From: Actinomycetota bacterium
GTDB taxonomy: Bacteria; Actinomycetota; UBA4738; JBBDHU01
Length of the DNA: 64,000 bases
Assembly (NCBI GenBank): GCA_040880465.1
Contig: JBBDIK010000011.1
Coordinates: forward strand, 177,229 to 241,228
Reading direction: 5' to 3'
The notes under the pieces were generated by a model, which worked only from the letters and a program-made list of their open reading frames with translations, searched no databases and had not been told where the DNA came from. This document shows, one piece after another, positions 4,321 through 49,417 of the stretch (its first letter is position 1; the number at the start of each line of letters is the position of its first letter). The position numbers were made by a program, and so were the translations under genes.

Positions 4321-4943
4321 GCTGCGTCCACCGCCTCCGGATCGGCCAGCACGACCACCCGTTCCGCACGAACGCCCGCCGCCGGGATCCCGGACGCCGA
4401 AAGCATCTCCAGGAGCGTCTGCTGCTTGGCTGCCCCCGACACGAGGAACACGGCGAGGTGGGCGGCGTTCAGGACCGGATAGGTCAGCGTCATGCGCCGA
4501 TGGTCAGGCCGCTCGACCAGCACCACGTTGCGATCGGTGACTTCGAGCGCCGGGTCGCCGGGGAACAGCGAGGCCGTGTGGCCGTCCTCGCCGAGCCCGA
4601 GGAAGATGAGGTCGAACGCTGGCACGCCGGGCCCGAACACCGATGCCAACTCAGTCTCGTAGCTCTCGGGATCGCAACCGGTCATCGGGTGGGCGCGCGC
4701 GGGAACGTGCGAGAGCAACGTCTCGTCGGCCATCCGGAAGTTGGACGCCGGGTCGTCCGGCGGAACGCATCGCTCGTCGCCGAAGAAGACCTCGACCCGC
4801 TCCCAGGCTGCCGGGTGCTTCGCCAGCTCCTCGTAGGTCGCACGCGGAGTGCTTCCGCCCGAGAGCGCGACGGTCCGCGGCGCCGTCTCCAAGAACAGGC
4901 GTGTCGCCTCGCCCGGCAGGTCGGTGGCGACCCTAAGCTCCAT
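4317..4943 (-). CDS. pgl: 6-phosphogluconolactonase
   Basis: ALSGGSTP, FFGDERCVP, GLGEDGHTASLFP, RMTLT. Confidence 0.92.
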   Translation of the reverse strand: MELRVATDLPGEATRLFLETAPRTVALSGGSTPRATYEELAKHPAAWERVEVFFGDERCVPPDDPASNFRMADETLLSHVPARAHPMTGCDPESYETELASVFGPGVPAFDLIFLGLGEDGHTASLFPGDPALEVTDRNVVLVERPDHRRMTLTYPVLNAAHLAVFLVSGAAKQQTLLEMLSASGIPAAGVRAERVVVLADPEAVDAA

Positions 4944-46355: not shown

Positions 46356-47150
46356 ATGCAGATCGGCGACCTCATCTACGCGAACGTCCTGGACCAGCGC
46401 GTCTTCGACACCCAGGGCGAGGACGGATCGCCCGGGATCTACTCGACCGCTATCCCTGGCCGACCCATGCCCTTCGTGCTGTTCCGTTCGTACAAGGTCC
46501 CGGCCGGCGTCGTCGCCGAGGAGATCCGGTTCACCGGCCCGTCCGGGCGCCTGGTCTGGCGCCGCGGCCCGGTCGCCACGCGCATGGGCGGGCAGATGGA
46601 GCAGACCCGGCTCCTGGACGTCGTCTCCGATGCCCTCCTCGATGAGCAGGGGACCTACCTCGCCTCGTTCATCATCGACGGCGAGATCCTGGGCGAGATC
46701 GAGGTCCCGGTGATCCTGGCAGCCGCCGAGACCTCGCTTCCCAAGGAGATCGAGGAGGGTCTGAAGAAGTCGGACATCATCTGGATCGGGAGCGACCAGC
46801 GCCCGGCGGGCGTGCACGAGTGGGAGGACAACCGCGTCGTCCCGGTCTGGTTCGCCTACCGCAACGGCAAGATCTACGTGCTCTCGCAGAAGCAGCAGGG
46901 ACCGGAGGAGCAGTCGATCCCCGGCATCGAGGGCATGCAACAGCTCCGGGTCGTCACGCGCCGCAAGGGACGCGACACGTCGCTCGACCGGTTCCACGCG
47001 AACGTACGGCTGCTCGACGGCGGCCCCGAGTTCGACGAGGCCGCCAAGGTCCTGGTCGACCGGCGGCGCAGCCGCAACGGCCCGCCCGCCGAGTCACTCG
47101 GCCGGTGGAAGACCTCCTGCGTGATCGCGGAGCTGACGCCGGTCCTCTAG
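46356..47150 (+). CDS. Hypothetical protein with C-terminal split-barrel (PNPOx-like) domain
   Basis: IIWIG...VPVWFAYRNGKIYVL..GPEEQ. Confidence 0.6.
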   Translation: MQIGDLIYANVLDQRVFDTQGEDGSPGIYSTAIPGRPMPFVLFRSYKVPAGVVAEEIRFTGPSGRLVWRRGPVATRMGGQMEQTRLLDVVSDALLDEQGTYLASFIIDGEILGEIEVPVILAAAETSLPKEIEEGLKKSDIIWIGSDQRPAGVHEWEDNRVVPVWFAYRNGKIYVLSQKQQGPEEQSIPGIEGMQQLRVVTRRKGRDTSLDRFHANVRLLDGGPEFDEAAKVLVDRRRSRNGPPAESLGRWKTSCVIAELTPVL

Positions 47151-48172
47151 ACCGTGTTCATCGGACGGCCCATCGCGGTCGCCAGGGCCGCGAGCTCCGC
47201 CCCGAGCCGCGTCAGCTCGTCGGGAACGAGTGCCTGCGGTCCATCGCAGAGCGCCTCGCTCGGGTTGTCGTGGACGTCGATCATCACCCCATCCGCTCCC
47301 GCGGCCAGCGCCGCCCGCGCCATCGGTTCCACCAGGTCCCGCCTTCCCGTCGCATGAGACGGATCGACGATGACCGGCAGGTGGCTTTCCTTCTGCGCGA
47401 CGAGCATGCCGCCGAGATCGAGCGTGTTCCGCGTCGATGGCTCGAACGTCCGGATGCCGCGCTCGCACAGGATGATGTCCTGGTTGCCCTCCCGAGCGAT
47501 GTACTCAGCAGCCATCAGCCATTCCTCAACGGTCGAGGAGAACCCACGCTTGAGCATCACCGGCTTCCCCGCCTTCCCGGCCTCCGTCAGGAGCGAGAAG
47601 TTCTGCATGTTGCGGGTCCCGATCTGCAGGGCATCGGCGACCGCCGCAACGTGCTCGACATCCCGTGCCTCAACGACCTCGGTCATGACCGGAAGTCCCG
47701 TGGTCTCGCGGCACTCGGCGAGGATCTCGAGTCCGGGCTTCCCCAGGCCCTGGAACGCGTACGGCGACGTCCTCGGCTTGTACGCACCCCCGCGCAGCAC
47801 GGTGGCACCCGCGTCCTTGGCCGCCTTCGCAGCAGCGAGGGCCTGAGCAGGGGTCTCGACGGCGCAGGGTCCCGCGATGTAGGTGAACGACTCACGCCCG
47901 ATCGAGGCCGGGCCGACCTTGACCGTCGTCGGAGCCTGGTGCAGCTCCCGGGCGACGAGCTTGTACGGTTTGCCGATCCGCTGGATCGTCTCGACGCCGG
48001 GCAGGGTGGACAGCGGGAGATCCATGAACCGTTCGGTATCGCCGATCAGCGCAACGATCGAACGGAGCTCGCCGTTCACGACGTGCGTCTCGCCGCCCAC
48101 CTTGTGGACCATGTCCGTGACACGATCGATGTCCTGCTCCGATGCACCTACCTTCATCACAACCACCATCAC
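47147..48172 (-). CDS. aroF: DAHP synthase (type I-beta, N-terminal ACT-like domain)
   Basis: [53 protein letters not shown]. Confidence 0.95.
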
Positions 48173-48206
48173 GTCCTCCTGTTCGGCCGGGCGGCCCCGA
48201 GCAATG

Positions 48207-48233
48207 AAAAACCCCGGGGTTCTCGCCCGGGGT
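48207..48233 (-). terminator. Attenuator terminator upstream of aroF
   Basis: ACCCCGGG-CGAGAAC-CCCGGGGT followed by TTTT. Confidence 0.85.
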
Positions 48234-48262
48234 CTCCTGCGGTGCTTCTCTTCGGCAGCAGG

Positions 48263-48319
48263 CTACGCCGGGCAACGCCCGAAGTAGAACCAACCGAAGG
48301 AAAAGTACCGCTCGCTCAT
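48263..48319 (-). CDS. Aromatic-amino-acid leader peptide MSERYFSFGWFYFGRCPA
   Basis: 7 of 9 consecutive codons are Tyr/Phe/Trp; lies between the promoter and the terminator upstream of aroF (alternative in-frame ATG 48328). Confidence 0.85.
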   Translation of the reverse strand: MSERYFSFGWFYFGRCPA

Positions 48320-48326
48320 CGGCTTC

Positions 48327-48355
48327 ATTCTCGGGGCTGGCATGGATTTTGGCAA
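48327..48355 (-). promoter_or_regulatory. Putative promoter of the aro leader (leaderless start)
   Basis: TTGCCA-17bp-GAGAAT, 7 nt before ATG 48319. Confidence 0.6.
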
Positions 48356-48358
48356 CCC

Positions 48359-48559
48359 TCAGTCGTCAGCGGCGAGATCTTGGAGCCGCGTCCGTGCCTG
48401 ATCGGCGAGTCCATCGTTCCCGATCGCCTCGGCCGCCCGGAGGGCCTCGTCGAGGAGGGCGCGAGCCTGGTCGACGCGGATACCGGCGCGCTCATCGGTC
48501 GCGTACTTGACCTTCTCGTCCGCCTTGACGATGAGGTCCCAGATCTCGCCCGGCTCCAT
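48359..48559 (-). CDS. Small hypothetical protein
   Basis: MEPGEIWDLIVKADEKVKYA...; helical 66-aa ORF. Confidence 0.6.
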   Translation of the reverse strand: MEPGEIWDLIVKADEKVKYATDERAGIRVDQARALLDEALRAAEAIGNDGLADQARTRLQDLAADD

Positions 48560-48598
48560 GACGCTACAGTGAACACCATCTCTCGGAGGTTGACGAAC

Positions 48599-49039
48599 GT
48601 GGACGCGACGCGGGAACCCGATGCGGCGACGCTGGCCGCCATCCAGGAACGCATCGATACCTCGCCGTTCCACACCTGGGCGGGGATCAGGCTCACATCA
48701 CTCGGTGACGGCACGGCCGAGTGCACGATGGACGTGCAACCGCACCACCTGAACCCGTACGAGATCGCCCATGGCGGTGCCATCGCTTCCGTGGCCGACG
48801 CGGCGATCGGGATCGCCGTCCGAACACGTTTGCGCCCCGGCTACACCCATGTCACCGCGCAACTCGACGTTCACTACCTCGGGATGGTGCGCGTCGGCGA
48901 CCGGCTGATCGGCCGCGGGCGCTCGCTGCACCTCGGCCAGCGGATGGGCTACGGCGAGGCCGACCTCGTCGACGGCGACGAGCAGCTGGTCGCCCGAGCC
49001 AGCGCGACGTTCATCGTGCTACCCCCGCGCGACGGGTGA
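48599..49039 (+). CDS. PaaI family hot-dog thioesterase
   Basis: HLNPYEIAHGGAIASVAD, TAQLDVHYL. Confidence 0.88.
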   Translation: MDATREPDAATLAAIQERIDTSPFHTWAGIRLTSLGDGTAECTMDVQPHHLNPYEIAHGGAIASVADAAIGIAVRTRLRPGYTHVTAQLDVHYLGMVRVGDRLIGRGRSLHLGQRMGYGEADLVDGDEQLVARASATFIVLPPRDG

Positions 49040-49417
49040 TCAGTACTCGCACTCGACAGCACGGACGATCGGCGCCAGCGCGGTCAGCGGTGTCTGCAGC
49101 GACATGGCCTTCATGATGTTGGAGATCTGAACCTTCCCGCCCATGTACGCCGCAACCCCCGACAGCTCACCCTTCGCCAGTGCGACGGCGGTGTCGTAGT
49201 CCTCGCTGATCGTGAGCGCGGCGTCGGCGATCTCACCCACACCCACGTCGATCACACCGGCCTCGACGGTGATCCAGTAGTGGATGTCCCCACCCGGAGC
49301 ATCGGTCACGACCTGCTGGATCTTCGTGCTCGTCTTCGCCGCAACGCGCTTGAACTCCTCGCTCGCGTTCGCGAGATCCTTCAGGGTGTTCGCCCACTCT
49401 TCGCTGAGGAACTTCAT
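49040..49417 (-). CDS. SCP2 sterol-binding domain protein
   Basis: MKFLSEEW, AAYMGGKVQI. Confidence 0.82.
   Translation of the reverse strand: MKFLSEEWANTLKDLANASEEFKRVAAKTSTKIQQVVTDAPGGDIHYWITVEAGVIDVGVGEIADAALTISEDYDTAVALAKGELSGVAAYMGGKVQISNIMKAMSLQTPLTALAPIVRAVECEY

Follow-up and report, generated by a model that had tools for sequence, protein, structure and literature searches.

Upstream of the one DAHP synthase gene that was detected in this genome lies an element which is very probably a leader-peptide attenuator of transcription, mediated by the ribosome. It is found on the minus strand of the window (the whole stretch of DNA that was analysed, 64,000 nucleotides long). Its anatomy, its conservation in relatives and the covariation of its leader hairpin carry this conclusion, and the switch between its two states is predicted by folding models. 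A genuine, conserved and so far unannotated element, it most likely acts like a classical leader-peptide attenuator. Its features are the following.

48350 to 48355, minus strand: -35-like hexamer TTGCCA; all 29 aligned relatives share its TTG
48327 to 48332, minus strand: -10-like hexamer GAGAAT, with a 17-nt spacer to TTGCCA; the leader ATG follows 7 nt on
48263 to 48319, minus strand: leader ORF MSERYFSFGWFYFGRCPA, 18 codons plus TAG (ATG at 48319, TAG at 48265-48263)
48281 to 48307, minus strand: codons 5-13 of the leader ORF, the putative regulatory block, encoding Y F S F G W F Y F
48239 to 48311, minus strand: leader hairpin (anti-antiterminator, 1:2), -39.4 kcal/mol, with covariation
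48269 to 48281, minus strand: apical hairpin CGGGC-GUU-GCCCG (48281-48269), -7.0 kcal/mol
48223 to 48275, minus strand: antiterminator (2:3) predicted by folding, UUGCCCGG at 48275-48268 with CCGGGCGA at 48230-48223
48207 to 48232, minus strand: terminator (3:4), CCCCGGG at 48232-48226, a 7-nt loop, CCCGGGG at 48218-48212 and TTTTT at 48211-48207, -19.5 kcal/mol
48185 to 48200, minus strand: G+C-rich boxes tcggggcc and gcccggcc after the terminator, conserved in the alignment, of unexplained role
47147 to 48180, minus strand: Shine-Dalgarno AGGAGG (48180-48175) and DAHP synthase gene (PF00793, PF18152, NF006421)

The helices are numbered according to the model of trpL and pheL attenuation, in which a leader RNA forms either the 1:2 and 3:4 hairpins or the 2:3 hairpin. 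An earlier note on this DNA had recognised the trpL/pheL type of architecture in it, and its parts were all found and are conserved: the promoter, an apparently leaderless aromatic ORF and the 1:2, 2:3 and 3:4 helices.

DAHP synthase is the entry enzyme of the common aromatic amino-acid pathway. The product of the gene matches PF00793 and PF18152 (an N-terminal ferredoxin-like regulatory domain) and scores 469 bits against NCBIfam NF006421, where the cut-off is 335; because of these three matches, the enzyme is assigned to type I-beta. The name aroF, given to the gene in the earlier note, is right as regards DAHP synthase, but an enzyme of the E. coli AroF type is not implied by a type I-beta protein with a ferredoxin-like domain. 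In the assembly, which is 86.5% complete, PF00793 has one match only, and searches for a type II DAHP synthase (PF01474) and for a prephenate dehydratase (PF00800) gave nothing. The genome's chorismate mutase gene lies directly behind another gene and has no leader. Translation of the DAHP synthase probably begins at ATG 48169 and not at GTG 48172, the start listed previously, because the spacing from AGGAGG (48180-48175) and the M-V-V-V start of the relatives favour the ATG. Downstream of the gene lies a convergent ORF, and the gene therefore looks monocistronic.

The promoter-like TTGCCA-17-GAGAAT is present as described earlier, at 48355-48327, and is the sole sigma-70-like site within 47000-49200, where 0.1 would be expected from shuffles. 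Its spacing is kept in the relatives, which have TTGnnn, 17 or 18 nt and nAnnnT in 29 of 29 loci, followed by 7-11 nt to the start codon. The leader ATG at 48319 has no Shine-Dalgarno, and the sequence suggests an mRNA that is leaderless or nearly so, starting at or just before this ATG. The ORF itself, of 18 codons on the minus strand, agrees with the first reading: codons 5-13 comprise 4 Phe, 2 Tyr and 1 Trp, so that seven of nine consecutive codons are aromatic. Such a composition is beyond chance. Indeed, in a census of small ORFs (8-35 aa, ATG or GTG starts) over the whole 1.74 Mb assembly, at least six F/Y/W in nine residues were found among 22,480 ORFs only in the leader ORF, with its three nested starts. 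At least five in nine were found in 13 small ORFs, and a T run follows downstream only at the leader ORF. On its upstream side the element adjoins an ORF at 48359-48673 (minus strand), whose end lies 3 nt before the -35 box. This ORF gave no match in a Pfam search; its probable start is an internal ATG, for a product of about 66 aa.

Outside the window, at about 4650-4845 on the minus strand of contig C2, the same genome carries a second leaderless leader, MREAKQGWRWSWGSRSPAPSRA, with three Trp codons. Its promoter is TTGACG / GACAAT, its CCCCGGGG-type hairpin is followed by a short U-rich tail (CTTTC), and a trpE-like anthranilate synthase gene lies directly downstream. From this second leader it would seem that the organism uses the leader-peptide device generally.

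In RNA folds of the window, the aromatic codons are paired in the leader hairpin with the spacer 3′ of the stop codon; this spacer, of 30 nt, separates the leader TAG from the terminator hairpin. The same arrangement recurs when the 29 sequences are folded free of ribosomes, nearly all of which form the long leader hairpin and then the terminator. In the long hairpin the purine-rich spacer stands opposite the aromatic codons, with a GGGC/GCCC hairpin at the apex. The small hairpin CGGGC-GTT-GCCCG at the end of the ORF, which had been noticed earlier, is present at 48281-48269 with -7.0 kcal/mol. It does belong to the anti-antiterminator, but the latter consists mainly of the long hairpin between the aromatic codons and the post-stop spacer. 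Likewise, the alternative pairing proposed earlier exists, as TTGCCCGG (48275-48268) and CCGGGCGA (48230-48223) form 8 pairs in the window, but the antiterminator is longer than these 8 pairs and its helix encloses an inner CCUGC/GCAGG stem.

The antiterminator shares bases with the 5′ arm of the terminator, since CCGGGCGA consists of this arm and the start of the loop. The terminator was correctly placed about 35 nt before the gene: it is a 7-bp stem with U5 (-19.5 kcal/mol) whose end lies 35-38 nt from the DAHP synthase gene, and in RNA folds of the window the stem extends into the U run. A simple terminator scan did not list the CCCCGGG/CCCGGGG hairpin. Its 7-bp stem of G and C is identical in 29 of 29 relatives. 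Folding of the alternative structures, which had been suggested as a check, recovered the terminator and antiterminator states as mutually exclusive.

Support for the terminator state comes from an alignment of 102 model hits, 94 of them distinct; weak antisense hits make up two of its rows. Since the sequences are kin and were aligned by fitting them to the model, the covariation is to be read as support and not as proof. The terminator state can pair in 90.7% of cells, versus 35-56% with slid partners. Compensatory cells number 61 in the 94 distinct sequences, versus 22.3 +/- 3.7 after shuffling, and none of 500 shuffles reached as high a value. Compensatory changes thereby support the leader hairpin. 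For the antiterminator (GCCCGG with CCGGGC, plus the inner stem), pairing is possible in 88% of cells versus 23-59% with slid partners, and for its outer helix in 99.8% of cells of the 94 sequences. The covariation of the antiterminator did not exceed the shuffle level (6 cells versus 4.6, with 148 of 500 shuffles as high), and it is conserved complementarity that points to this helix. RNAalifold on plain MAFFT alignments returned the apical hairpin and the terminator, and no more.

The effect of a translating ribosome was modelled in the 29 sequences by masking the A site plus 12 nt. The median probability of finding the terminator 5′ arm already paired with upstream sequence when the 3′ arm has yet to be made was 0.52 with no ribosome, 0.95 with the ribosome at an aromatic codon and 0.44 with the ribosome at the stop codon. 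In the window, the unmasked RNA favours the terminator state (-59.3 versus -48.0 kcal/mol for the forced antiterminator), whereas masking of nt 1-44 favours the antiterminator (-31.6 versus -27.2 kcal/mol for the terminator). For every modelled stall from Y5 through Y12, the antiterminator forms before the 3′ arm is made. With a stall at F13, the last Phe codon, it is weakened (-20.1 kcal/mol before the 3′ arm) and the terminator is favoured at equilibrium; with the ribosome at the stop codon the antiterminator is impossible. In the model, therefore, a ribosome masking the aromatic codons flips the fold to the antiterminator.

Among sequencing runs on record, the stretch was listed for DNA contigs only and for no RNA run. 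The steps from transcription start through leader translation to termination, as well as the responses to the individual amino acids, we infer as follows. Transcription would start at or just before the leader ATG at 48319, and the 18-codon ORF would be translated without a Shine-Dalgarno. When charged aromatic tRNAs are abundant, the ribosome would reach the TAG and cover the GCCCGG segment, and the CCCCGGG/CCCGGGG hairpin with U5 would then end transcription about 35 nt upstream of the gene. A leader that is not translated would likewise terminate, the long leader hairpin sequestering the GCCCGG segment. When Phe-tRNA is short (and probably also Tyr-tRNA or Trp-tRNA), the ribosome would stall within codons 5-12 and occupy the 5′ strand of the leader hairpin. 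UUGCCCGG would be freed to pair with CCGGGCGA, the terminator would be blocked and the DAHP synthase gene would be transcribed.

Conservation was assessed by searching the enzyme, as a protein anchor, in 61 genomes (G000 and 60 relatives), which gave 30 loci. An F/Y/W-rich ORF of 16-20 codons lies before the DAHP synthase in 29 of these, ending 62-103 nt from the gene, so that the conserved leaders which the earlier note proposed to look for are indeed there. Two of the 29 loci, L007 and L028, belong to unpublished genomes, and the count is 27 of 28 without them. The leader starts with ATG in 28 of the 29 and with GTG in one; an SD-like word precedes the start in just five. The stop codon varies among TAG, TAA and TGA yet remains a stop, gap lengths within the ORF are divisible by three, and F, Y and W interchange at equivalent positions. 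At locus L023 (genome G020), the promoter-like site and the CCCCGGG hairpin are kept and the leader ORF is absent; the covariance model R1 has no match in this genome.

A wider search was made with an exact RNA motif composed of the leader end, the spacer and the terminator arms, in one genome per species over 185,579 species. It returned 98 loci, with a DAHP synthase downstream on the same strand in 94 and an aromatic ORF in 95; three matches are due to chance (L094, L105 and L119). Among the 80 motif-locus titles listed, all are metagenome-assembled genomes except the chance matches L094 (Sphaerimonospora) and L105 (Streptomyces). Nearly all of these 80 are named Actinomycetota or Actinomycetes bacterium, and a few Alphaproteobacteria, Planctomycetaceae or simply bacterium. 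Within the class, R1 matched 123 of 151 genomes (121 of the 123 with an E of 6e-8 or better) and 28 had no match; every listed genome of this sample is labelled with the same order. By family, the matches are 2/2 plus the window in f1, 2/2 in f2, 108/116 in f4, 1/1 in f5, 6/6 in f6, 3/13 in f8 and 0/10 in f7. The R1 counts include the unpublished G007, G015, G039, G069, G115 and G122.

In families f7 and f8 (loci L146-L157), the enzyme is about 50% identical and is encoded behind an AroH-type chorismate mutase (PF07736, TIGR01796). Of the 12 loci, 10 have a longer aromatic-rich ORF and a different terminator before this two-gene operon; one more has the terminator with a weaker ORF, and L153 has neither. 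One member of the set, L147, is from an unpublished genome. On direct reading of the sequence, the terminator at these loci has a 5′ arm complementary to the 3′ portion of the leader that precedes it. Over the rest of the phylum R1 gave weak matches only, and five of the eight examined lie before the same enzyme type and have aromatic ORFs. A phylum sample of 60 upstream regions was drawn from the 105 of 151 genomes with the enzyme. In 18 of these regions there is an ORF with at least four aromatic residues in nine, ending 75-135 nt before the gene. All 18 belong to f11 (1/1), f15 (7/8), f16 (5/6), f18 (4/4) and f40 (1/1), that is, 18 of the 20 loci sampled there. The other sampled families of the phylum had no clear aromatic leader, and several of them have a chorismate mutase directly upstream, the operon start lying outside the sample. 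The leaders of other families were judged by peptide composition, position and direct sequence reading.

The composition of the leader peptides bears on which amino acids are sensed. Among 91 distinct peptides, Phe is present in 91, Tyr in 90 and Trp in 72, and all three occur together in 72. Counted from the C-terminus, aromatic residues make up a fraction of 0.43-0.90 at positions 14, 13 and 11-7, and of 0.25 at position 12, where G is found in 53 of the 91. W occupies position 10 in 48 of 91; at position 9 there are 58 F and 21 W, and at position 7 there are 71 Y and 11 F. By this pattern it is the aromatic class that is selected, and not particular residues. The last five residues are nearly fixed (G in 90, P in 88 and A in 86 of 91 at positions 5, 2 and 1) because this tail is encoded by the invariant RNA segment GCCCGGCG.

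From the codons present, the earlier note had drawn the idea that one peptide integrates three tRNA charging signals. In its full form, the leader would be an OR gate: shortage of Phe-, Tyr- or Trp-tRNA would each stall the ribosome in one strand and open the sole DAHP synthase, and this trivalent device would have persisted, under several unrelated RNA designs, in many families of uncultured Actinomycetota. Trivalent sensing is favoured because Trp codons recur in 72 of 91 peptides and in leaders that are differently built, and we hold it as a serious, though still tentative, candidate.

A narrower reading of the same attenuator, possible but distinctly less well placed, is that it is effectively a sensor of Phe, or of Phe plus Tyr, the Trp and Tyr codons being kept mainly for hairpin pairing. 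Both kinds of codon do sit in paired columns of the hairpin, where UGG and UAC find partners (UAC with the GUA of the stop region). Moreover, Phe outnumbers every other residue, averaging about 3 per peptide; the mean for Trp is 0.84-0.93, 19 of 91 peptides lack it, and the genome has a separate Trp-rich leader before trpE. Caution on trivalent sensing is also advised by the one relative of the idea that has been put to experiment, the aroR leader of Corynebacterium glutamicum, which responds to Phe limitation and not to Tyr, according to the available portion of a review (PMC11802643). Against the narrower reading, Trp is found in 8 of the 11 type-B (f7/f8) peptides listed and in most of those of f11, f15, f16, f18 and f40, and a single pairing constraint is inadequate because Trp recurs in leaders of quite different RNA sequence. 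In addition, F and W alternate at one position (F 58, W 21 of 91), where two bases change and an aromatic residue is kept.

Another account moves control mainly to translation: the leader ORF or the post-terminator boxes would set the access to the Shine-Dalgarno of the DAHP synthase, or re-initiation, and termination would be minor. It may draw on the conserved G+C-rich boxes between terminator and Shine-Dalgarno, on the U tracts, which are imperfect in many relatives, and on folds of this stretch in isolation, where most of the 27 relatives having a Shine-Dalgarno show it in part paired. The modelled access, however, has medians of 0.39 for the free and 0.39 for the stalled state (up in 11 and down in 4 of the 27), the leader stop lies about 90 nt upstream of the gene, too distant for coupling, and the terminator stem does not vary in any of the 29 relatives; the account is unlikely. 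The boxes are also present in L002-L030, where one is like the terminator arms and the other like the GCCCGG segment of the leader, and folding assigns them no consistent effect on access to the Shine-Dalgarno. A dual transcription/translation switch acting through these boxes was considered and rejected, as the access did not change consistently.

It is still less probable that the leader is a translation-independent RNA element (a riboswitch, or a protein- or tRNA-binding leader) in which the small ORF is an accident of G+C richness. Open frames are common at 67% G+C, and the RNA segments are conserved more than the peptide. Nevertheless, for all the base changes, the leader keeps its start codon, its frame, its stop function and its aromatic class, and the enriched amino acids are exactly the products of the pathway. 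Nor did any Rfam family match: a scan to E 10 gave four unrelated hits (E 0.85-6.3), all below the gathering score, and no Trp_leader, Phe_leader, T-box or riboswitch. The least credible proposal, a functional small hydrophobic peptide whose hairpin merely ends its own small transcript, could explain the nearly invariant C-terminal G-x-x-P-A, but this C-terminus is encoded by GCCCGGCG, which pairs with the terminator arm, the aromatic positions are free to vary in identity, and the leaders of other families share only aromatic richness and their place before DAHP synthase.

As a leader-peptide attenuator, the element provides a regulatory annotation for a conserved 150-nt stretch left blank by gene callers and by Rfam, and it is found in well over 100 uncultured actinobacterial species genomes. 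In these organisms, tRNA charging, besides the allosteric domain of the enzyme, probably sets the entry into the aromatic pathway. A leader of mixed codons is also a natural test bed for the weighing of several amino acids, and the model R1 together with the motif could seed an RNA family.

Among known systems, the ilvL and thrL leaders of enterobacteria are multivalent attenuators, and the present leader is like them in having a single peptide with codons for several end products. With trpL and pheL it shares regulatory codons in segment 1, mutually exclusive hairpins and an intrinsic terminator before a biosynthetic gene. These two sense one amino acid each and control operons of terminal branches, whereas the window leader has three kinds of codon, precedes the entry enzyme of the common pathway and lacks a Shine-Dalgarno. 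The trpL and pheL attenuators of E. coli are described in the available portion of PMC11802643.

The leader of the window, with an SD-like word in just five of 29 relatives, fits the leader peptides of Streptomyces lividans, for which leaderless transcription is described in the part of PMC8079986 at hand; the eight leaders listed in that part include none for the aromatic common pathway. In the accessible text of Seliverstov et al. 2005 (PMC1262725), no conserved RNA structure was found before Phe or Tyr operons of the actinobacteria then available, and the corresponding portions of PMC2965389 and PMC4833913 add nothing on aromatic leaders. A literature search whose scope excluded Neshat et al. 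2014 and the supplements of papers turned up no account of F/Y/W leaders preceding a type I-beta DAHP synthase.

The nearest published parallel is aroR-aroF of C. glutamicum, and attenuation of this type is itself already known. The enzyme of the window differs, being of type I-beta with a ferredoxin-like domain, and its lineage is an uncultured class-level group; the aroF product of C. glutamicum we take to be a type I-alpha enzyme. The leader of C. glutamicum aroF was found by RNA-seq and contains Phe-Tyr-Phe, according to the part of Mentz et al. 2013 available (PMC4046766). It was later named aroR, and in the available portions of later accounts Phe limitation is described as causing stalling and more transcription (PMC11802643; also PMC7356990), the availability of Tyr being without effect according to the review (PMC11802643). 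The two systems are thus alike, as far as these excerpts go, in having a short leader of aromatic codons before a DAHP synthase gene in an actinobacterium, with stalling said to raise transcription. Compared with aroR (F-Y-F), as given in the available published description, the window peptide has seven aromatic codons, including one for Trp.
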